DNA of 64,000 bases from a bacterium (GTDB lineage Bacteria > Bacteroidota > Bacteroidia > UKL13-3), in assembly GCA_034439755.1 (NCBI GenBank), contig JAWXAZ010000140.1:13789-77788 (forward strand). The letters run 5' to 3'. The notes under the pieces were generated by a model, which was given only the letters and a program-made list of their open reading frames with translations, had not been told where the DNA came from and did no database searches. Numbering within the stretch: position 1 is the first letter of the stretch; every line of letters starts with the position of its first letter. Made by a program: the position numbers and the translations under genes. Below are positions 1,488 to 45,520 of the stretch, piece after piece.

Positions 1488-1952
1488 ATGATGAGAATAA
1501 AAATCCTTGCCTTACTTCTTTTTACGTTCACATTTAGCTCTTTTAAGGGAGATGATGAAATAAAGTGGCTCGACTTTAACAAGGGCTACGAATTAGCTAA
1601 GAAGAAAAACAAAATGATGCTGGTTGATGTATACACCGAATGGTGTGGATGGTGCAAACGCATGGATAGAGATGCTTATGCAAAACCCAATATAATTGGA
1701 ATAGTGAACAGTGATTTTGTGGCGGTAAAATTCAACCCCGAAATTAAGGATATCACGTATCATTATGAGGGCAAAAATTACACAGGCGAGCAATTAGCTG
1801 GGGTAATAAGCAATTATCAAATTAGTGGTTACCCTACTACCATTTTCATGTATCCAAAAGGAAAGAAAATGGAGGTAATGTCTGGGTATAAAAATGCCGA
1901 TCAATTGGCGCCTATTTTAGCCGACATAAAGATGAAATTTAGCAAAAAGTAA
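1488..1952 (+). CDS. secreted thioredoxin-fold protein (CxxC)
   Basis: 154 aa. N-terminal hydrophobic signal sequence and a WCGWC redox motif. Starts 4 nt after the upstream stop. Confidence 0.7.
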   Translation: MMRIKILALLLFTFTFSSFKGDDEIKWLDFNKGYELAKKKNKMMLVDVYTEWCGWCKRMDRDAYAKPNIIGIVNSDFVAVKFNPEIKDITYHYEGKNYTGEQLAGVISNYQISGYPTTIFMYPKGKKMEVMSGYKNADQLAPILADIKMKFSKK

Positions 1953-1976
1953 TAGCATTTTTTAAAAAACTTTCAT

Positions 1977-2017
1977 AAAAAAGGTCACTTACTATGGAGT
2001 AGGTGACCTTTTTTTTT
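1977..2017. terminator. bidirectional rho-independent terminator
   Basis: Stem GGTCACTTACT (1983-1993) / AGTAGGTGACC (1998-2008) with one G-U pair and a 4-nt loop. An A-run lies on the left and a 9-T run on the right. It sits between convergent genes. Confidence 0.7.
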
Positions 2018-2062
2018 AGACAAATCAATTTCAAAAATGCATTGGTTCAGACCGAAAAAAAA

Positions 2063-2929
2063 TTAGATATGCTTTTCTGCGTGGTACGATGAGCGCACCA
2101 AGACACCCGATTCAACATAATTAAACCCTTTGGCCAGACCAACTTCTTTGTAAAAAGCAAATTGTTCTGGGGTAATAAATTCTTCTACATTTAAATGCAT
2201 TTTGGTAGGTTGAAGGTATTGCCCCAAGGTTATTACATCGCAGCCATGAGCGAGCAAATCGTCCATAACTTCTAGCACTTCCTCTTGGGATTCTCCTAAG
2301 CCAAGCATGATGCCAGATTTGGTTCTTAAGCCGCGCTCTTTTGTTCTCCTAATTTGTTCTAAACTGCGCTCATATTTGGCCTGAGGGCGCACTTTTCTAT
2401 ACAACCTTTTCACGGTTTCCATGTTATGAGAAACCACCTCGGGCCTTTCATCAATTACTTGATAGAGCAAATCCCAATTGGTTAAAAAGTCTGGAATTAA
2501 GGTTTCCATGGTGGTACCCCTACTTTCTTGCTTTACCAAACGAATGGTATCGGCCCAAACTTTTGCGCCCTTATCTGGCAATTCATCGCGGTTTACACTG
2601 GTAATTACCGCATGCTTTACATTCATTAATTTAATGGCCTCTGCCACACGCCTGGGCTCATCTAGGTCGTAAGTATTGGCCCTTCCCGTGGCAACTGCGC
2701 AAAAAGAACAACTGCGGGTACAGGTATTGCCTAAAATCATGAATGTGGCGGTACCTTCTCCCCAGCACTCGCCCATATTAGGACAATTTCCGCTTTCGCA
2801 AATGGTATGCAACTTATGCTCATCCACCAATTTTCTAACGCGCCTATAATTTTCCCCAGTGGGTAATTTTACTTTAAGCCAAGATGGCTTTTTTACTTTT
2901 TCTTCTCCTAAAACCGGTAATTCAATCAT
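2063..2929 (-). CDS. lipA: lipoyl synthase
   Basis: 288 aa. Both LipA cysteine clusters are present: [12 protein letters not shown] and radical-SAM [10 protein letters not shown]. Confidence 0.95.
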
Positions 2930-2930
2930 T

Positions 2931-3686
2931 CTATTTTCTATTTCCCCAACTATAACTCACATAAAATCCCGCGAGCAATTGATCGTAATTTGTCTTTGCC
3001 ATTATTGGAATGCCGTTCATAAATGCATCTACAGTAACTCCTGCCTCTAGGCACCTAATTTCGTCGCTATACTGCCCCCACTCTACCTGAAAGCCAGCTC
3101 TTCCAAATCCACCTACCTGCAATTTAGTTTCGCTTAATCCCTTAGTAAAAGTAGAATTTCCATAAATTTTATAGATATCAGAATGCTTTTGAGGGTCGTA
3201 TCTTTCGCTTACCAAATAACCTTCACTAGGCGAGTTATCGAACTGATAATAAACCTCAATATAAACGGGCTTTAAAAAAGCAGTAGTAACGCCCACATCA
3301 TAAACAAAATTGATCCCTATGGCATTTTTATAAGGTCTGTCTGTAATAGTAATGGTTTGTCCAAAGCTATTTCGCATTAGATAAACCACGTTCAATCTAC
3401 CAAAAGTATATTGCGTTTGGTTCTCTGTAAAACCTTGCCTTCTATCCTCCTTTGGGTGCCTAATTCTACTAATGTCGAGCTCCCAATGATTTTGTTCCTT
3501 CCCCGTTTTATGCCAACCCAAGCGGTAAAAAGCGCCGCGCGATTTAAACGAGTTTAAGCCAATACCATACAAGTTACTTTTGGTATACATAAGCTGCGGC
3601 TGCGTAATAGGCGCATTTTGCCCGAGAACTAATTTTGTAGTTCCAATAAGGAGGCAAATAAAAAAGTAATGTCTGAACCTATTCAA
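2931..3686 (-). CDS. hypothetical secreted protein, probably an outer-membrane beta-barrel
   Basis: 251 aa. Has a signal peptide and alternating aromatic/polar beta-strand-like pattern, ending in YSWGNRK. Lies 1 nt upstream of lipA on the same strand. No family recognised. Confidence 0.4.
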
Positions 3687-10306: not shown

Positions 10307-12544
10307 TTATTTTAGGTTATACCTAAAGCCCAAAACCACATTTCTACCCATCATGGGTGCATAATTATAACTTGGATCGAATTGGTACTTATTGGGATTA
10401 CTTTGTGCATCACCTGCCGTTTTGTTGAAAGGATCCCACCACCTCAAAATTGGATTTTGAGGCAAGAAATTTCCCAGATTTCTCACACTGCCAAAACACT
10501 CAAAACCACTGCCCCATTTCTTGGTAATTTGCAAATGATGTAGGCTGAACCAAGGCGAATATGCTGGTCTAAAATCATTGGGAACAACGGGCAATCGCAT
10601 TGGACCATAGACTTGGGCGGTATAATCTATTACCATATTGAGACGTTTAAAAGTGTATGCCACCTGGTAGGTTCCAGAAAATTTTGGGGCATGCATTTGC
10701 ATTTGTTTTTCCATGATTCCATTCGAATCTGCATTTAAAGAATACACCTCCATTAAAGTGAAACCCGCATTTATTTTCAAAGGAAAAACAAAGTTCCAGC
10801 CGGTATTCAAAGTAAGGCCTTGGGAGATGGCATGACCATTTAAATTTTGGTAATATATTTTGCTGGCATCGGTATCATAATCGGGCACAATTTTATTGCC
10901 AAACCAAGTATAAAATGCGGTGATATCCCATTCAAAAAAACCAGCAGGCAAATTATGCCAACGCGAATAATTTACATTCACATTCCAACTGTTTTCGGGC
11001 TTTATATTAGGCGCAACAATTACCTCCCGCGCGCCCGACAATGCTGCATGATCTTCTGTAAAAATATTCACCACCCTAAATCCGTTTCCAGCACTGAGTC
11101 GCAGCGTTTGGGTAGAACCAAAATTGACTTTATAATTTGCTCTTGGGGAGAAAATAAGCCCGTGCCAAGAATAATGATCGGCACGCGCACCTAAAAGCAA
11201 AGTTTGATTGGATGTGAGGGCAATTTCATCTTGCACAAATACACCTGGAATAACCATTTTTTTAAAAACATCTGCCTGACCACCAATAGGCGCATTGTCT
11301 TGGTAATTAGAAACTCGCAATGCTGCTCCCATAAGCGTTTGGTGCCTTATGCCTATTTTTTTTTCTAGCAATAATTGGTTAAATGCACTCCATTGTTGGG
11401 CAATAAAATAGCTTTGTCCGTAAGCCGAATTTTGGTCGTGAATATTCCACGACAATTGGTATTTAAAGGCTTGTTTAGCTATTAAAAAAGGATGTGATAC
11501 AAGAAGCTCCGCGCGTTTGGTATAAATAGATTCGCCATACACGCTATCGCCACCTCTAAAGGCCTTGTTATAAGTAAGCTCCCCAGCCATTCTATCCTCG
11601 TAATACACGCGGGCAGCAAGACTAGTTCTCAACTTTTCTGTTCTATTCCAGGTCAATTTTCCAAAAACAGAAACCCTTTTTTGCAAGGTAATATCTGTAA
11701 AATTATCCTTATTTATATCTACCCTATTTTGAAAATAAAACAGATTGCCACTTAATAAGGTCGATACTTTTCCAAACCTTTTTGCATAACCCACATCTAA
11801 GTTTTGTTCCTTGTATGAAGAAGCATAATAGTTGAGGCTAAACCGCGGAGCCGTTTCGGGCGATTTGGTAATTACGTTTATTAGTCCGCCCACCGCTTCG
11901 CTGCCATATAAAGTAGCAGCAGGACCCTTTACCACCTCCACCTTTTCTATCATGCTATTTGGAATTCCGCTTAAGCCATAAACGGTAGACAAGGCACTAA
12001 TGATGGGCATTCCATCTATGAGCACCAAAGTATAAGGACCATCTAAGCCATTGATATGAATATCGCCGGTATTGCACACATTGCAATTTAGTGTAGGTTG
12101 CACGCCATTGATCATTTGCAAAGACTCAAACAAACTGTTGCTAGGCGTTTTCTTAAAAAACTGATGTCCGTATATTTCCACTGGCACAGGAGACGATGAT
12201 TTGCTTACCTCGCGCATGGTTCCGCTAATGGTGAGCTCTTTTAGACTGGTGTTTAAGGGCACCAATTCTATGCGCAATTCTTTTTCTTTTTCGGGCTGAA
12301 CCAATATCTTTTGTCGCTCATAGCCTATTACAGAAACCTGAAGTTGAAAGGTTCCTGCTGGTATATTTTTAAGCATAAAAGCACCCTGCTCATCACTTAA
12401 AGTAGTTTTATTTAAAGTAGCTATGCCAATGGTGGCAAAAGAGACAGGCTGTTTATTGGCCATTACTTTACCTTTTATGGCAAAGGTTTGGGCATGTGTG
12501 AATGCACTCGAAAGGAGAAAAATGACAAATAATAACTGTTTCAT
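10307..12544 (-). CDS. TonB-dependent receptor with N-terminal carboxypeptidase-regulatory-like domain
   Basis: Signal peptide MKQLLFVIFLLSSAFTHAQ and plug motif VEVVKGPAATLYGSEAVGGLINVITK, followed by a long beta-barrel. ATG at 12544 is preferred over the TTG at 12553. Its stop codon directly abuts the engB stop. Confidence 0.85.
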   Translation of the reverse strand: MKQLLFVIFLLSSAFTHAQTFAIKGKVMANKQPVSFATIGIATLNKTTLSDEQGAFMLKNIPAGTFQLQVSVIGYERQKILVQPEKEKELRIELVPLNTSLKELTISGTMREVSKSSSPVPVEIYGHQFFKKTPSNSLFESLQMINGVQPTLNCNVCNTGDIHINGLDGPYTLVLIDGMPIISALSTVYGLSGIPNSMIEKVEVVKGPAATLYGSEAVGGLINVITKSPETAPRFSLNYYASSYKEQNLDVGYAKRFGKVSTLLSGNLFYFQNRVDINKDNFTDITLQKRVSVFGKLTWNRTEKLRTSLAARVYYEDRMAGELTYNKAFRGGDSVYGESIYTKRAELLVSHPFLIAKQAFKYQLSWNIHDQNSAYGQSYFIAQQWSAFNQLLLEKKIGIRHQTLMGAALRVSNYQDNAPIGGQADVFKKMVIPGVFVQDEIALTSNQTLLLGARADHYSWHGLIFSPRANYKVNFGSTQTLRLSAGNGFRVVNIFTEDHAALSGAREVIVAPNIKPENSWNVNVNYSRWHNLPAGFFEWDITAFYTWFGNKIVPDYDTDASKIYYQNLNGHAISQGLTLNTGWNFVFPLKINAGFTLMEVYSLNADSNGIMEKQMQMHAPKFSGTYQVAYTFKRLNMVIDYTAQVYGPMRLPVVPNDFRPAYSPWFSLHHLQITKKWGSGFECFGSVRNLGNFLPQNPILRWWDPFNKTAGDAQSNPNKYQFDPSYNYAPMMGRNVVLGFRYNLK

Positions 12545-12576
12545 GAGCGACAAATGTCGGACATTTTTAGGAAAAA

Positions 12577-12614
12577 CAAAATATATTTTTAGATTAATCT
12601 AAAAATATATTTTG
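12577..12614. repeat. 38-bp perfect palindrome in a divergent promoter region
   Basis: CAAAATATATTTTTAGATT|AATCTAAAAATATATTTTG is perfectly self-complementary. It lies 32 nt upstream of the TonB-receptor ATG and 63 nt upstream of the aroE ATG. Confidence 0.9.
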
Positions 12615-12677
12615 ACAAGCCTAGCTTCCATATAATACATATATAAAAAAGTATATTTGTAGATAATTGAATTGAGA

Positions 12678-13754
12678 ATGAATCTAAAATTTGGCCTGAT
12701 AGGGCATCCTTTGCACAACCAGTTTTCGGTGAATTACTTTACGCGCAATTTTGAGGAGGCGGGATTAGCATATAGCTATGAGAATTTTGATTTGGCTACA
12801 GAGGAGGAATTGAGGGCATTTATTTCAGCGCTCAAAACTTTAGGGGATCCATATTTGGGTGGGCACAATTTAAATGTACCTAATAACGATGGAATAACTT
12901 TACAAGGGAGCGAAATTGGCGGTACTAATTTGGAGGGGCAAAGTTTGCACGGGCAAAGCTTGCACGAGCAACGTTTGCATGGGCATAGTTTGGAGGAGCA
13001 ACATTTGGAGGGGCAAAGTTTGGAGGAGCAACGTTTGGAGGGGCAACGTTTGCACGGGCAACGTTTGCATGAGCAAAGTTTGGAGGAGCAAAGTTTGGAG
13101 GGGCATAGTTTGGAGGGGCATAGTTTGGAGGGGCAAAGTTTGGGTGGCTCTAATTTTGTTGGAGCTAGTTTTGGCGGATTAAATGTGACGAAGCCTTATA
13201 AGGAAAAGGTACTTTCAATGATGGATGAATTATCCATAGAGGCTGAGGTTTGTGGGGCGGTTAATTGCATTCAATTTTTGCCAAATGGCGTTTTAAAAGG
13301 GCATAATACCGACGTATATGGATTTAATATTTCCTTGCAACAATTCTTAGGTTTGGACCGAAAAAAAAGGGCTTTAATTTTTGGAAATGGCGGTGCGGCA
13401 AAAGCGGTTTGTTATGTTTTAAATGAACTATCCATACCTTATCATTTGGTTACGCGGAGCTTGATAAAACAAGAGAATGAGTTAAATTATTCTGAGCTTA
13501 CCTTAGCATTAATTAAGCAGCATGAGTTGTTAATTAATGCAAGTTCGGTGGGCATGTACCCTAATGAAGATCAATGTTTGCCTATTCCATTTGAAGGCAT
13601 TGGTAAGGCACATTTTTGTTATGATTTAATTTATTTACCAGAGAAAACCACGTTTCTATTGGAGGCAGAAAAGCGCGGTGCTAGGGTTAAAAATGGCTTA
13701 GACATGTTGCATTTACAGGCCGATGAGGCATATAGAATTTGGATGGATGCTTAA
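12678..13754 (+). CDS. aroE: shikimate dehydrogenase carrying a ~110-aa pentapeptide-repeat insertion
   Basis: AroE motifs FGLIGHPL, GGLNVTKPYK, HNTDVYG and the NADP loop GNGGAAKAV are all in one frame. ATG at 12678 is preferred over TTG at 12672. The repeat insertion lies between the N-terminal segment and the NVTKPYK motif. Confidence 0.85.
   Translation: MNLKFGLIGHPLHNQFSVNYFTRNFEEAGLAYSYENFDLATEEELRAFISALKTLGDPYLGGHNLNVPNNDGITLQGSEIGGTNLEGQSLHGQSLHEQRLHGHSLEEQHLEGQSLEEQRLEGQRLHGQRLHEQSLEEQSLEGHSLEGHSLEGQSLGGSNFVGASFGGLNVTKPYKEKVLSMMDELSIEAEVCGAVNCIQFLPNGVLKGHNTDVYGFNISLQQFLGLDRKKRALIFGNGGAAKAVCYVLNELSIPYHLVTRSLIKQENELNYSELTLALIKQHELLINASSVGMYPNEDQCLPIPFEGIGKAHFCYDLIYLPEKTTFLLEAEKRGARVKNGLDMLHLQADEAYRIWMDA
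12858..13187 (+). repeat. in-frame 15-bp tandem repeat (22 units; 14 near-identical core units at 12933-13142)
   Basis: The core unit consensus is GAGGGGCAAAGTTTG, encoding (E/H)(G/E)Q(S/R)L. Five degenerate units lie upstream and three downstream, and the last is the native GGLNV. Direct reading of the sequence. Confidence 0.95.
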
Positions 13755-13772
13755 TCTTTAATACTATTGCAC

Positions 13773-14732
13773 ATGGGCTTGTTTTACACTTATTGCAAAT
13801 ATAATACACGGTTAACATCGCATTTATTTTATGAGAACATTAGAATTGGGGGCATAGAAAATATTCCTTTACACAAGCCTGTGGTATTGGCACTAAACCA
13901 TCCCAACTCGTTTTTGGATGCGGTAATTGTAGGCGCGGTAATTGATAGGCCAACGCATTTTTTAGCACGTGGCGATGCTTTTAAAAGCAATGTTGCGCGG
14001 CCCATTTTACATTCTTTAAACATGTTGCCTGTTTTTCGATTGTCGGAGGGAAAGGAGAACTTAAGCAAGAATACGGAAACTTTTGATGCTTGTCAGAACA
14101 TCCTAGAAGAGCGAAAGGTGGTGATTATTTTTGCAGAGGGATTAAGTGAGAACAATTGGGATTTACGGTCTTTAAAAAAGGGTCCGGCTAGAATTTCGAT
14201 AAAGGCTTGGAGCAGCGATACGCCTGCTAAAGACATTGTAATTGTGCCCGTAGGATTAACCTATGAACATTATAAAGGTGCTGGAAAAAACATCTTGGTA
14301 AACTTTGGAAAACCCATAGAAAGACAAGACTTTGAGGGCATTCAAAATGAGGCGCAGTTTGTGCGTACTTTTAATGAAAGGTTATTTGGCGAGTTAGGTA
14401 AACTGGCCTATATAGCCCCTTCAATGAAAGAAGGCGACGCTCAATATACGAATTTTAGACAGACCTTTAGGCGACTTTGCCGGGGCGAAAAGGATGGCAT
14501 ACAACTGTTATCAAAACTAAACGCGCAATTGGATCAAACCGAAAAAAGAAGGTTTATACCATTTATAAAAAGCAGTCTTTTGTTTGCCCCTTTATACGCA
14601 TTAAGCACTTGGTTAACGCCCAAAATAGTGAAACAATCTTTGTTTTTTGATTCTATTTCTTTTGGATTGGTGATGTTCCTGTGGCCCTTTTATTTATTGG
14701 GCTTGGGCTTGCTTTTAGCTTGTCTATTTTAG
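13773..14732 (+). CDS. lysophospholipid (1-acyl-sn-glycerol-3-phosphate) acyltransferase family protein
   Basis: HX4D motif NHPNSFLDA, FAEG block (IIFAEGLS) and a C-terminal transmembrane segment. ATG at 13773 is preferred over TTG at 13767. Confidence 0.75.
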   Translation: MGLFYTYCKYNTRLTSHLFYENIRIGGIENIPLHKPVVLALNHPNSFLDAVIVGAVIDRPTHFLARGDAFKSNVARPILHSLNMLPVFRLSEGKENLSKNTETFDACQNILEERKVVIIFAEGLSENNWDLRSLKKGPARISIKAWSSDTPAKDIVIVPVGLTYEHYKGAGKNILVNFGKPIERQDFEGIQNEAQFVRTFNERLFGELGKLAYIAPSMKEGDAQYTNFRQTFRRLCRGEKDGIQLLSKLNAQLDQTEKRRFIPFIKSSLLFAPLYALSTWLTPKIVKQSLFFDSISFGLVMFLWPFYLLGLGLLLACLF

Positions 14733-41363: not shown

Positions 41364-41842
41364 TGGAAACAAGCAGCATCGCTGATATAAAAAAAGAACT
41401 CAATCAGTTACAAACACCCGAATTGATTGACCTCTGTTTAAAAATGGCCAAATTTAAAAAAGCCAATAAGGAATTAGCGCACTATATTTTGTTTGAATCT
41501 GTGCGTGAAGATCAATACATACAAAAGGCAAAAGAAGAAATTAGTTTGCGCTTTGAAGAGATGCCCAAAAACAGTTTATTCTTTACCACAAAATATATTC
41601 GTAAAACACTTCGCATAGCCATGCAGTATGCGCAATACAGCAAATTGGTTCAGACCGAAATTGAATTGTTGTTACACTTCTGTTTTGAGTTAAATGAGCG
41701 AAAATCTTACTGGAAAAAATACCAAGCCATCGAAGGAATTTATGAACGACAAATAGAAAAAGTTAAAAAGGATTTATTGAAAGTGCATGAAGATTTAAGG
41801 TACGATTATGAGCGAATTTTGGAACAATTAATTAGCGGATAA
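41363..41842 (+). CDS. hypothetical all-helical protein
   Basis: 159 aa with no recognisable motif. Its start overlaps the epimerase stop (TAATG). Its 3' end overlaps convergent nnr by 11 nt. Confidence 0.4.
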   Translation: METSSIADIKKELNQLQTPELIDLCLKMAKFKKANKELAHYILFESVREDQYIQKAKEEISLRFEEMPKNSLFFTTKYIRKTLRIAMQYAQYSKLVQTEIELLLHFCFELNERKSYWKKYQAIEGIYERQIEKVKKDLLKVHEDLRYDYERILEQLISG

Positions 41843-43346
41843 ACCGAAGCTCATCCACAAAATCGCCAGCTATGCAATTGACATAATTTTTGCACTTTAA
41901 AGAGTTGGCCAAGGCACCATGTAAATACACCCCATAGGTTGCAGCATCAATAGAATTGAGGCCTTGCGCTAACATGGCAGTTATGATTCCAGATAACACA
42001 TCGCCACTACCGGCCGTGGCCAAAAGTGAATTGCCAGAGGAGTTAAAACTCACTTTTCCATTGGCATCAATTACTTGGGTATAAGTGCCTTTTAACACAA
42101 TAACAATTTGATAGGCAATGGCATTTTTTATAGCAGTTTGCAACCGCTCATACGCATGTTGATGTGCGCCAAAAAGCCTATCAAACTCCTTGGCATGTGG
42201 CGTAATGATGCTGTTTTTAGGAAAGCAAAAATTTGAATTTTGTTGCATGAGCACCGCGCAGGCATTGAGTGCATCGGCATCAATTACCAGTGGTGTTTCT
42301 ACCTGGCTGAACCAAGTGCCAAAAGATTTTATGGTACCAGAATGCAAGCCCATTCCGGGTCCTACACAAACAGCCGCATAAGATGAAATTACGGGAAAGT
42401 TTCTTAATTCGTTAAGCTCCACATCTGGCAAAACCATTACTTCTGGCAAGGCCGTTTGAAAAATCTGATAACCAATTTTGGGTATGTGGGCAGTAACCAA
42501 TCCCGCTCCTGCTCTCAGTGCCGCGCGAGAAGCCAGTAATGCCGCACCCACTTTACCTTCGCTTCCACCGATAATGAGGGCATGACCTTTTTGCCATTTA
42601 TAGGAAAATTTTGAGTCCTTGGGTTTGTTTATTTTGTTTGGGTTTAGCCAATATAAATCACTTTCGGTTTGATCCAAAAACGCAGGCAACAAATCGATAT
42701 CGATGATAAAAAAATTGCCCACCCTATTGCCCGATTCAGGAAACAAAAAACTTGATTTAGGCACTTGAAAAGTATAGGTTCTATGGGCCTCAAAAACGGT
42801 AGCATCTAAATTTTTACAAGCCTCGTTAGCATCTGCAAACAAGCCAGATGGCAGGTCGATAGCGAGTTTAACGGCATTCTTTAAATTGAGAAATAAAATT
42901 AAATCTTTGGCAAATCCGCTTACAGGCGTGTTTAATCCCGTTCCAAACAAAGCATCAATGATGATATCCGCATCATTGATACTGGGCAAATCACTGACAT
43001 CACTTAACAAAATTGGATTGATATCAATTGCTTGGCAACGCAACAAATTAAGTTCAAAATCTTCTGTACCTTTTTCCTTTTGGTTCAGGATAAAAACGTT
43101 TACCTGATAACCAGAACTTTTTAAATACCGGGCAATAACGAGGCCATCTCCTCCATTGTTTCCTTGCGCGCAAAACACTTGGAAAGACTTATTAACGAGC
43201 TTAGAAAAATCTTGATTCAAATGCTGAATTAAGAGGTGAAAGCACCTAGCCGCAGCGCGCTCCATAAGTCCCAAACTACTTACAGGTTCGTGTGCAATGG
43301 TAAATTGATCCCATTGTTGAATTTGATTTTTAGTTAAGATTTTCAT
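41832..43346 (-). CDS. nnr: bifunctional NAD(P)H-hydrate repair enzyme (epimerase + ADP-dependent dehydratase)
   Basis: 504 aa. YjeF-N motif GNNGGDGLV and the C-terminal kinase-fold GSGDVLSG. Confidence 0.88.
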   Translation of the reverse strand: MKILTKNQIQQWDQFTIAHEPVSSLGLMERAAARCFHLLIQHLNQDFSKLVNKSFQVFCAQGNNGGDGLVIARYLKSSGYQVNVFILNQKEKGTEDFELNLLRCQAIDINPILLSDVSDLPSINDADIIIDALFGTGLNTPVSGFAKDLILFLNLKNAVKLAIDLPSGLFADANEACKNLDATVFEAHRTYTFQVPKSSFLFPESGNRVGNFFIIDIDLLPAFLDQTESDLYWLNPNKINKPKDSKFSYKWQKGHALIIGGSEGKVGAALLASRAALRAGAGLVTAHIPKIGYQIFQTALPEVMVLPDVELNELRNFPVISSYAAVCVGPGMGLHSGTIKSFGTWFSQVETPLVIDADALNACAVLMQQNSNFCFPKNSIITPHAKEFDRLFGAHQHAYERLQTAIKNAIAYQIVIVLKGTYTQVIDANGKVSFNSSGNSLLATAGSGDVLSGIITAMLAQGLNSIDAATYGVYLHGALANSLKCKNYVNCIAGDFVDELRFIR

Positions 43347-43457
43347 TGCTGGTTTCGAAGGTAAAAAATAATGAAAGAAAATAAACCTTAAAAGATACTT
43401 AGATAAAAGATACTTAGATAAAAGAGGGAAATTGTAATTAAAAAAGTCCCTATTGCC

Positions 43458-44039
43458 CTATGGCAATTTTTCTTGCGCATAGGCAATGGCCACTTCCTCT
43501 AGCTCGGCATACCATGCAGCGCCAAACCTGCTAATTAGCGGATCTTTAAGGAATTTAAAAACGGGCACTTTTTCTTGTTTTCCGAGTGTGCAAGCCGCTT
43601 TGCAAATATCCCAGCGGTGGTAATTTAACGCATCATAATCGCCCACTTTAATAACCCTAATTGGGTATAAATAACAAGAACTGGGCTTTCTAATTTCCGA
43701 TTTGCCATCTAGAAAACTTTTTTCAATGCCGCAACTAAGCAAACCATGCTCATCTCTTTTAACAAAATTACATTCGCCAGTAGGAAGACAAGTGGTAACC
43801 CATTCGCCATCTTCATCAATTTCAAACCCACCACGTTTTTCAATGTCCTTCAAAGAATCTTCACTTAGGTATGGTTTTATGAGGGGAAAAGCCTTTTCAA
43901 TTCTCGATTTTTCTTCTAAGGTAACAGGAGCGCCGGCATCGCCTTCAATGCAGCAAGATCCTTTACAGGCGCTGAGGTTGCAGATAAACTCTTGGTCGAA
44001 TAAGTCTTCTGAGACCAGCGTATTTCCAATAATAATCAT
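43458..44039 (-). CDS. DUF3109-family cysteine-rich protein
   Basis: 193 aa. FICNLSACKGSCCIEGDAGAP cluster plus further conserved Cys (CLPTGECNF, CYLYP, CKAAC). Confidence 0.6.
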   Translation of the reverse strand: MIIIGNTLVSEDLFDQEFICNLSACKGSCCIEGDAGAPVTLEEKSRIEKAFPLIKPYLSEDSLKDIEKRGGFEIDEDGEWVTTCLPTGECNFVKRDEHGLLSCGIEKSFLDGKSEIRKPSSCYLYPIRVIKVGDYDALNYHRWDICKAACTLGKQEKVPVFKFLKDPLISRFGAAWYAELEEVAIAYAQEKLP

Positions 44040-44350
44040 ATAGTTAGTAGCGCAAAATTATTTTTTAGTAGCGTAAAGTCATATAGTTAGAACTGTAAAA
44101 TTCATGTATTTAGTAGCGCAAAATTATTTTTTAGTAGCGTAAAGTCATAATGTTAGAACGGTAAATTCATGTATTTAGTAGCGTAAAATTATTTTTTAGT
44201 AGCGTAAAGTCATATAGTTAGAACTGTAAAATCATGTATTTAGTAGCGCAAAATTATTTTTCAGTAGCGTAAAGTCATATAGTTAGAACTGTAAAATCAT
44301 GTATTTAGTAGCGCAAAATTATTTTTTAGTAGCGTAAAGTCATATAGTTA
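44036..44350. repeat. intergenic tandem repeat, ~65-bp unit x ~4.8 copies
   Basis: Units start at 44044, 44110, 44175, 44240 and 44305 (period 66/65/65/65). The array is bounded at both ends by TCATATAGTTA. Each unit contains TAGTAGCGYAAA twice. Confidence 0.95.
44053..44060 (-). promoter_or_regulatory. candidate -7 promoter box (TAATTTTG on the minus strand) for the DUF3109 gene, re-copied in the upstream repeat units
   Basis: The reverse complement of CAAAATTA is TAATTTTG, which matches TAnnTTTG. It lies 13 nt upstream of the ATG at 44039. The same box recurs in units 2, 4 and 5, and unit 3 has TAATTTTA. Confidence 0.35.
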
Positions 44351-44449: not shown

Positions 44450-45520
44450 ATGACAAATATGGTCAAAACAGATATTCGATCACTTAACTTGGATCAGATT
44501 AAAGATGCCTTTATTGCCAATGGCGACAAGGCATTTAGGGGATTGCAGGTATATGAATGGCTTTGGAAAAAAGCTTGCACAGATTTTAATCAAATGACCA
44601 ATTTGGGCATTGAAACACGAGAATGGTTACAGCACAATTTTGTGATAAACGACATTGCAACGGTAGACAAGCAAGTGAGCAATGATGGTACTATTAAGAG
44701 TGGTTTTAGGTTGCATGATGGCCATTTGGTAGAAGGCGTTTTAATTCCGGCAGACGAAAGAATGACGGCTTGTGTTTCTTCACAAGTTGGTTGCAGTTTA
44801 ACCTGTAAATTTTGTGCAACGGGTAAGATGGAGCGCGAACGTAATTTAACTTCAGGTGAGATTTACGACCAGGTTGTGCAGATTAGAAACTGGGCCATGC
44901 ATCATTTCCAGAAGCCTCTTACAAACATTGTTTTTATGGGAATGGGTGAACCCTTGCTTAATTATGCAAATGTATTAAAGGCCATCGATAAAATTACATC
45001 TCAAGATGGGTTGGGAATGGCCGCAGACCGCATTACAGTTTCTACCGCAGGAATAGCTAAAATGATACGGAAACTAGCCGACGATGAAGTGCGGTTTAAT
45101 TTGGCCTTAAGTTTACATGCTGCCAATGATGCGAAACGCAATATGATAATGCCCATTAACGAAAGCAATAGTTTGAAAGAAGTTGGAGAAGCCTTAAAAT
45201 ATTTTCATTTAAAAACAAAAAAGCGGGTAACCTTTGAATACATTGCCTTTAAAAATTTTAACGAAAGCATTCAGGATGCAAAAGAGTTGCTAGCCTTTTG
45301 CAAAAAGTTTCCGGCTAAAGTAAATGTGATTGAATATAATTCCACTGGTGATGGTCAATTTGAAAAAGCCGATTCCGATAAAATTGACCAGTTTTGCGCT
45401 TACTTAGAAAAAAATGGCGTGGTGGCAAAGGTTAGGCGCAGTAGAGGCAAAGACATTGACGCCGCATGCGGACAGTTAGCCAATAAAAAACATGAAGAAG
45501 CCTTGTTTCAAGAAGGTTAA
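44450..45520 (+). CDS. rlmN: 23S rRNA/tRNA adenine-C2 methyltransferase RlmN (radical SAM)
   Basis: 356 aa. Radical-SAM CSLTCKFCATG, MGMGEPL, and the C-terminal DIDAACGQL. Confidence 0.93.
   Translation: MTNMVKTDIRSLNLDQIKDAFIANGDKAFRGLQVYEWLWKKACTDFNQMTNLGIETREWLQHNFVINDIATVDKQVSNDGTIKSGFRLHDGHLVEGVLIPADERMTACVSSQVGCSLTCKFCATGKMERERNLTSGEIYDQVVQIRNWAMHHFQKPLTNIVFMGMGEPLLNYANVLKAIDKITSQDGLGMAADRITVSTAGIAKMIRKLADDEVRFNLALSLHAANDAKRNMIMPINESNSLKEVGEALKYFHLKTKKRVTFEYIAFKNFNESIQDAKELLAFCKKFPAKVNVIEYNSTGDGQFEKADSDKIDQFCAYLEKNGVVAKVRRSRGKDIDAACGQLANKKHEEALFQEG

Follow-up and report, generated by a model that had tools for sequence, protein, structure and literature searches.

The 64,000-bp stretch of DNA analyzed here (hereafter the window: positions 13,789 to 77,788 of contig JAWXAZ010000140.1, in the Bacteroidia assembly GCA_034439755.1) carries an aroE gene, coding for shikimate dehydrogenase, in which an array of 15-bp units adds 110 residues to the enzyme. 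The open reading frame (ORF) runs without interruption from either candidate start, and the 1,077 bp frame counted from the ATG is intact (table 1). Its translation places FGLIGHPL, 5' of the insert, and GGLNVTKPYK, HNTDVYG, and GNGGAAKAV, 3' of it, in one common frame. A first-pass annotation of the window had described an in-frame 15-bp coding minisatellite within a bona fide aroE, with the hallmarks of the enzyme in a single frame on either side; Tandem Repeats Finder (TRF), the ORF, and the orthologue alignments all agree with this description. The two additional open frames that it listed across the array, one on each strand, are also present, as by-products of a stop-free repeat.

The limits of the insert were defined by comparison with three 248-aa orthologous proteins (P0002-P0004) and with the loci of three relatives (L006, L008, and L009). 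The closest proteins in a collection of 5.8 billion are 248-aa shikimate dehydrogenases, with 63-65% identity when the best local alignment is taken; across the full aligned length P0002, P0003, and P0004 are 61%, 61%, and 60% identical to the window protein. Protein and DNA alignments with all six comparators show a single clean gap of 110 codons (330 bases), the array being thus an in-frame insertion into an orthologue. Native-equivalent sequence stops at ...ALKTL (residue 55) and restarts at GGLNVTKPYK (residue 166), between helix alpha2 and strand beta3; on PDB chain 1nvt (M. jannaschii AroE) the insert falls between the neighboring residues 64 and 65. The distance from residue 38 to the Asn of the NVT motif (N169) is 131 aa here versus 20-23 aa in 118/118 homologues. 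Alignment with orthologues, a check that the first-pass annotation had proposed, therefore confirms the insertion point and the insert-free state of the relatives. It also corrects the borders. The count of 22 units holds, but their best placement is one unit to the left of the 12858-13187 given at first. Furthermore, GGLNV (13173-13187), then taken as the final unit, is indeed the enzyme's own sequence but does not belong to the extra material, of which GDPYL is part instead, and the five upstream and three downstream degenerate units become six and two.

In the alpha/beta domain of AroE, the substrate is bound at the C-terminal ends of the strands. Judging from this fold, the insert would form a surface loop from which strand beta3 is entered at its N-terminal end, far from the active-site cleft. 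That end should lie one strand length from Lys175, and so an insert that in the sequence does stand directly before the catalytic motif, as previously stated, would be distant from it in space, at the far end of beta3.

Table 1. Features of the aroE locus, in window coordinates.
Feature	Position	Strand	Remarks
aroE (shikimate dehydrogenase), 358 aa	12678..13754	+	ATG at 12678; alternative TTG at 12672
Lineage-specific insert, 330 bp = 22 pentads, residues 56-165	12843..13172	+	Protein and DNA alignments
Six degenerate 5' units GDPYL GGHNL NVPNN DGITL QGSEI GGTNL	12843..12932	+	
Core array, 14 units, consensus GAGGGGCAAAGTTTG (EGQSL)	12933..13142	+	
Two degenerate 3' units GGSNF, VGASF	13143..13172	+	Each a canonical pentapeptide repeat
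Native GGLNVTKPYK: strand beta3 and catalytic Lys K175	13173..13202	+	K175 codon 13200-13202
78-aa ORF (MPLQT... repeats)	12900..13136	-	Repeat on opposite strand; by-product, not a gene
88-aa ORF (VWRGK... repeats)	12916..13182	+	Other plus frame; repeat by-product

The Array and Its Distribution

TRF recognizes a period of 15 at 12929-13143, with 14.3 copies, 84% matches, zero indels, and a score of 255, and 15-base units can be read across 12843-13202. In the aroE frame the core units read (E/H)(G/E)(Q/H)(S/R/H)L. Their two-unit consensus finds seven matches within three mismatches, versus none in 100 dinucleotide shuffles. Neither of two larger periodicities was retained: a 60-bp TRF row of four pentads, equal to one coil, has a lower percentage of matches than period 15, and a block duplication of 6-7 units receives no support from permutation of the unit order (P = 0.22).

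The core units had been called near-identical, which overstates their likeness. Eleven distinct sequences occur among the 14 units, with a mean identity of 88% to the consensus and 82% pairwise, and together they form a mosaic of variants whose origin calls for several mutations. This variation is restricted to 7 of the 15 positions (1, 3, 5, 9, 10, 11, and 12), and among the eight invariant ones are the three of TTG and the fourfold-degenerate last base of GGG. In effect, every core Gly is encoded by GGG (9/9 codons) and every core Leu by TTG (14/14). In the host, here the aroE gene without its insert plus its downstream neighbor, GGG is the least used Gly codon (4/39) and TTA is more frequent than TTG. 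The codon uniformity of the core thus points to common descent or homogenization of the units, and not to amino-acid selection. Edge units have mixed codons and share 5-10 of 15 bases with the core consensus; their GC content, counted by hand from the sequence, is host-like at about 40%. Core GC is 52% versus 38% for the gene and for the window, a difference that reflects the composition of one 15-mer. At the protein level the core uses an alphabet of only E, L, Q, G, S, H, and R, with a net charge of -10 and nine His.

Among pairs of common biallelic sites, all four combinations are found in 4/6 (hand count over the 14 units), which indicates recurrent mutation or else exchange between units. 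Arrays evolving by slippage or unequal exchange are expected to show a homogeneous center flanked by degenerate units. On the pattern of bases and codons, the core appears as the younger or homogenized part and the edges as the older. The recent expansion suggested in the first-pass annotation survives in this form, through the contrast between uniform core and mixed edge codons, though without its premise of near-identity. Two other sources of unit variation were considered and rejected. Positive selection at exposed positions leaves no signal, with about six nonsynonymous to two synonymous variable sites versus a neutral ratio of about 4.6:1 (hand counts), and a diversity-generating retroelement is not indicated, the variable positions not being adenine-specific. 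At the 3' end of the core (13100-13144, plus strand) a regular-expression scan detects four G3-4 tracts, 8-11 nt apart, which compose a long-loop G-quadruplex motif; this motif might contribute to replication slippage.

The array is real and not confined to one assembly of the data. An independent Logan assembly of SRR6448212 equals the window over 11,170 bp, array included. Moreover, no 31-mer occurs twice within 12800-13250, which leaves a de Bruijn assembler without ambiguity at the array.

Within the collections searched, the array is also unique. It is known from one sequence (a 90% identity cluster with a single member; one Logan contig plus the metagenome-assembled genome, MAG). Matches in the best 80 loci among 185,579 GTDB species representatives span 546-762 bp, and thus the insert is absent from all 80; the nearest belong to uncultured Bacteroidota, with at most 56% identity. 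A degenerate two-unit DNA pattern has no match in the GTDB genomes (chance expectation about 0.04, by our own estimate) and four in JGI metagenomes, all unrelated: a non-coding CACTTGCAGGGGCAA satellite on a repeat-rich contig (L002), one chance match (L003), and other repeats (L004 and L005). In a HMMER search of 1.84 billion cluster representatives, no other protein with an EGQSL-type unit occurs among the best 150 matches listed, an informative absence, since an array of that unit should rank there. The sole high-identity match among those listed, at 59%, is an EGQPL extensin-like repeat. A word-indexed protein search with the insert alone as query returned nothing, the parent protein included, and is uninformative. 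The literature searched holds no relevant link between pentapeptide repeats and shikimate dehydrogenase, and no mention of SRR6448212.

State of the Enzyme and Gene Neighborhood

The catalytic residues of AroE and its fold are retained. Pfam PF08501 (Shikimate_dh_N) matches the protein with 63.4 bits (cut-off 27, E = 2.3e-17), in two stretches split by the insert. NCBIfam TIGR00507 gives 162.6 bits with the insert in place, under the equivalog cut-off of 200.2; after its removal in silico the score is 170.4 bits, in one end-to-end stretch. The insert-free orthologue P0003 scores similarly low (166.4, slightly under the value obtained without the insert), and so the sub-cut-off value is a feature of this Bacteroidota clade and not a sign of damage by the insert. 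All 25 columns that are invariant among 119 AroE sequences are kept, including T171, K175, N196, N210, D212, G236/G238/G239, R260, and Q347; within the GGLNVTKPYK strand G167, T171, P173, and K175 are invariant in the same 119 sequences. Also kept are N169, V170, T211, and A240, at positions conserved in at least 90% of them. The catalytic Lys and Asp, the substrate-binding Asn, Thr, and Gln, and the glycine-rich NADP loop are therefore all present.

The rate of divergence gives a similar picture. AroE identity is 61% between the window and its relatives and 66% between two insert-free relatives, and the same comparison in neighbor genes gives 75 versus 83, 66 versus 78, 88 versus 92, and 90 versus 96%. 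Since the identity gap of the neighbors is proportionally larger, the divergence of aroE is not accelerated. An AlphaFold2 (AF2) model built on the 119-sequence alignment has a predicted local distance difference test score (pLDDT) above 90 in both AroE domains, with a strand modeled at 164-170, and Foldseek matches it to AroE crystal structures with E = 1e-21, a target-normalized template modeling (TM) score of 0.78-0.84, and a root-mean-square deviation of 2.2-2.8 A. From these sequence-based data we consider that the enzyme very probably folds and works despite the insert. The identical protein in NCBI (MDZ4669097.1) is entered as "MAG: hypothetical protein SGJ00_14615 [bacterium]", whereas insert-free orthologues bear the product name shikimate dehydrogenase. 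This label would be explained by the splitting of the hidden Markov model match by the insert, in a clade that also falls below the TIGR00507 cut-off.

The genomic context of aroE is conserved as well. On the contigs of relatives the shared order comprises SLT/LysM, LpxK, PNP, GTPase, and TonB-dependent receptor (-) genes upstream, then aroE (+), and downstream an acyltransferase (+), a glyoxalase-like gene (-), SDR (-), RNase HII (-), Polysacc_synt, and Wzz. Gene order is intact, and no mobile-element genes adjoin aroE. The intergenic promoter region is conserved in the relatives, including a AAAAAGTATATTTG motif that we take to be the -7 promoter element of Bacteroidota, TAnnTTTG. A perfect 38-nt palindrome (12577-12614; CAAAATATATTTTTAGATT/AATCTAAAAATATATTTTG, zero spacer) is located in the intergenic region that separates aroE (+) from the divergent TonB-dependent receptor gene (-). 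It is mostly conserved in L006, L008, and L009 and may serve as an operator or as a site of regulation in both directions; inside it, at 12585, the Logan contig terminates. A search for known RNA families across 12300-14000 found none.

Origin and Nature of the Insert

On balance, we put forward as the more probable reading, held with some reserve, that the array is a lineage-specific coding minisatellite which is tolerated rather than useful. In this scenario a 15-bp unit would have been amplified in the alpha2-beta3 surface loop of an orthologous aroE, via replication slippage and/or unequal recombination, and given the five-codon unit every copy number would stay in frame. Two layers would be superimposed, namely older, degenerate, canonical-pentapeptide-like edges and a younger or homogenized EGQSL-type core of 14 units. 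The array would then persist as a tolerated, near-neutral, acidic, low-complexity appendage rich in His, Gln, and Glu. The slippage or recombination mechanism, the selective neutrality, the retained activity, and a flexible or non-beta-helical structure are parts of the scenario that we infer.

The 5' edge sequence GGHNLNVPNN resembles the native GGLNVTKPYK, with which it has the 8-mer TTAAATGT in common, and a duplication of the native segment was considered as the origin of this edge. It was rejected, as 646/2000 shuffles reached the score in a first test of the resemblance and comparison with codon shuffles gave p = 0.05-0.11. Derivation of the array from the native GGLNV, as proposed in the first-pass annotation, thus has no significant resemblance behind it. 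In relatives the native junction reads ...NL-GGLNV, and hence a pentad pattern is already present there.

Several points weigh against a neutral minisatellite. Neutrality, like any variation in copy number, would be a presumption for an array known from a single sequence. An insert of 110 residues in an essential enzyme contains zero stops and zero frameshifts, and the periodic Leu and the period-5 hydrophobic pattern of the edges have been maintained, all of which is compatible with selection for structure or function. With regard to the activity of the enzyme, a second aroE was not found in the 64-kb window, the only part of the genome searched. Finally, similarity to pentapeptide-repeat proteins is detectable. 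A phmmer search retrieves designed and natural solved members with E = 2e-10 to 1e-6, the top ones checked among the 10,684 HMMER matches belong to genuine Pfam Pentapeptide proteins with GANLE-type repeats, and the failure of AF2 to give a beta-helix is weak evidence, as there is no alignment depth for the insert.

The most probable of the alternatives, although an unlikely one, is that the insert is a folded Rfr-type right-handed quadrilateral beta-helix of about 5.5 coils, projecting from the substrate-binding domain and with a function of its own (binding, oligomerization, or scaffolding). A beta-helix-like appendage was also the structure envisaged in the first-pass annotation. In its support, L, F, I, or V occupies each fifth residue in 20 consecutive pentads (12888-13187), 19 of them in the insert and one being the native GGLNV, and three edge units (GGTNL, GGSNF, and VGASF) conform to the pentapeptide consensus, as had been recognized. 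NCBIfam adds weak matches to HetL (1.6e-5) and PipB2 (3.1e-5). However, the HetL score of 24.5 is far under its cut-off of 260, and Pfam PF00805 reaches 11.8 bits versus a gathering score of 20.2 (E = 0.19). In the core the inward-facing residue i-2 is Gln in 11 units and His in three, that is, large and polar in 14/14, while in 14,335 pentads of the 149 best-match proteins it is Ala in 63%, Val, Thr, or Ser in 22%, and Gln or His in 1.5%. A small inward residue is found in the edge units (T, S, A, S, and I) but not in the core. The only repeats in which a large polar residue holds i-2 over a long run are of the non-Rfr kind, for example EGQPL, EGEPV, and AERLE. On two tested features, the PF00805 score and the core i-2 residue, the insert departs from the pentapeptide family, to which it does not demonstrably belong.

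Structure prediction, also proposed in the first-pass annotation, returned disorder and helix in both AF2 runs, each without alignment depth for the insert and thus weak evidence. In the model of the full protein, pLDDT falls below 50 at residues 62-103 and 143-154 and is 54-75 in a helix at 105-141 (insert range 32-75). In the insert-alone run, on a 125-residue piece, a helix spans 45-91, which corresponds to 95-141 of the protein, with a mean pLDDT of 59 and a predicted TM score of 0.30; this model has no fold match in the PDB. In addition, a helix of 5.5 coils would set its ends about 25 A apart, though both must rejoin one loop. Taken as sequence, the core has probably drifted from the pentapeptide consensus, and a quadrilateral beta-helix is probably not formed. 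The extensin-like match mentioned above (P0197, 550 aa) contains about 28 near-perfect EGQPL pentads, is classified by Pfam as extensin-like and not as Pentapeptide, and is 59% identical to the aroE core. EGQxL repeats of period 5 thus occur outside Rfr-type pentapeptide proteins.

Two further scenarios are improbable, each somewhat more so than a beta-helix. In one, the array is under selection, as an acidic, His-rich extension of tunable length on an essential enzyme of the shikimate pathway; it would serve as a stalk, a non-canonical beta-helix, or a module that binds a metal or a partner. This would be a case of domain birth by minisatellite expansion within a catalytic domain, with edges that are already pentapeptide-like and a core that is still evolving. 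The uninterrupted frame and maintained period-5 pattern are compatible with it. In the other, part of a pentapeptide-repeat gene, foreign or paralogous, was captured in the loop, and the core alone was then expanded locally. The canonical pentapeptide character of the edges, unlike the core, and the raised core GC are in line with such a capture. Nevertheless, the edges are host-like in GC and the core GC is that of one 15-mer, and no donor with an EGQSL unit appears in the best protein matches, the GTDB genomes, or the JGI contigs. The intact gene order, the lack of mobile-element genes beside aroE, and the pentad pattern already present at the ...NL-GGLNV junction of relatives are likewise at odds with a foreign origin.

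We regard as very improbable that this aroE is a decaying copy, inactivated by the insertion, whose activity is supplied by another aroE or ydiB in the genome. The NCBI product name "hypothetical protein" might be read in this way, but the frame is intact over its whole length, none of the invariant catalytic and cofactor residues has been lost, and the gene has not diverged at an increased rate. Furthermore, the gene sits in the orthologous position behind a conserved promoter region, the window has no second aroE, and the low TIGR00507 score is common to insert-free orthologues. The least credible possibility of all is an assembly or sequencing artefact: the source is a short-read MAG and both assemblies may share the same reads, but two different assemblers gave an identical sequence with no 31-mer repeated in the array, the frame of aroE is the same on both sides of the array, and degenerate edges that are stop-free with a period-5 pattern are not expected from an artefact.

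Other Repeats and Comparison with Known Systems

Additional repeats were met in the course of the searches. A 65-bp tandem repeat at 44034-44350 (4.9 copies, 93% matches), with a reiterated TAGTAGCG(T/C)AA motif, fills the interval that separates two divergent ORFs, 43458-44039 (-) and 44450-45520 (+). A perfect 15-bp repeat at 43389-43425 (2.5 copies of TAAAAGATACTTAGA) lies between ORFs 41832-43346 (-) and 43458-44039 (-). Outside the window, the degenerate DNA pattern led by chance to L004 (Ga0316204_10000441), where an ORF at 1540-3162 (-) begins with in-frame N-terminal pentad repeats, HNLDEHNLDEHNLD followed by SKLAPSKLAPGKLATSKLAP. From GTPase motifs read by eye, without a domain search, we take this ORF to be a putative CysN-type sulfate adenylyltransferase GTPase; if so, a housekeeping enzyme would carry 15-bp coding repeats independently of the present case.

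Relative to canonical AroE (TIGR00507; E. coli 1NYT and M. jannaschii 1NVT), the window protein shares both domains, the NVTxPxK and NTD motifs, the GxGGA loop, and the catalytic Lys and Asp, and differs by the 110 extra residues between the equivalents of 1NVT residues 64 and 65. With the pentapeptide repeat proteins (PF00805; Np275/Np276, MfpA, Qnr, and HetL) the insert has in common the period of 5, the central Leu or Phe, and the frequent Gly at i+2. Its edge units are canonical in this respect (T, S, or A at i-2, then N or S, then L or F). In contrast, where those proteins have Ala at i-2 and Asp or Asn at i-1, the core carries Gln or His and Ser or Arg, respectively, and the repeats are embedded in an enzyme loop, whereas theirs form a stand-alone or terminal domain.

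Coding minisatellites, or variable-number tandem repeats, are as a rule features of surface, adhesin, or contingency genes. Like the bacterial examples, whose repeat period is divisible by three, the present array consists of head-to-tail units, here of 15 bp or five codons, so that changes are in frame, and it has a homogenized center, degenerate edges, and stop-free by-product frames on both strands. Here, however, the array lies within the catalytic N-terminal domain of an essential biosynthetic enzyme, and it is known from a single sequence.

Intragenic tandem coding repeats that keep their hydrophobic positions and vary their hydrophilic ones are also a property of PARCELs (PMC2996958). 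PARCEL units comprise 25 residues, have dyad-symmetric DNA, and have spread horizontally over many taxa, mostly in membrane-targeted ORFs of unknown function (PMC2996958). The unit described here has five residues, is non-palindromic, and occurs in one gene of one lineage, and the array is unrelated to PARCELs.

If the favored scenario of a tolerated minisatellite is true, a loop whose length is strongly conserved (21 +/- 1 residues in 118 homologues), within the core domain of an essential enzyme, has absorbed 110 repeat residues with all catalytic residues kept, and the locus offers an example of a period-5, Leu-centered repeat arising or expanding in place. This would be of some use for the study of protein-repeat birth, of insertion tolerance, and of AroE loop engineering. 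No new system or mechanism is revealed, and greater weight would attach to the case only if the array were folded, functional, or length-variable within populations. The array is thus a further instance of the known coding-minisatellite kind, unusual in the enzyme that hosts it and in its size relative to a loop of fixed length.

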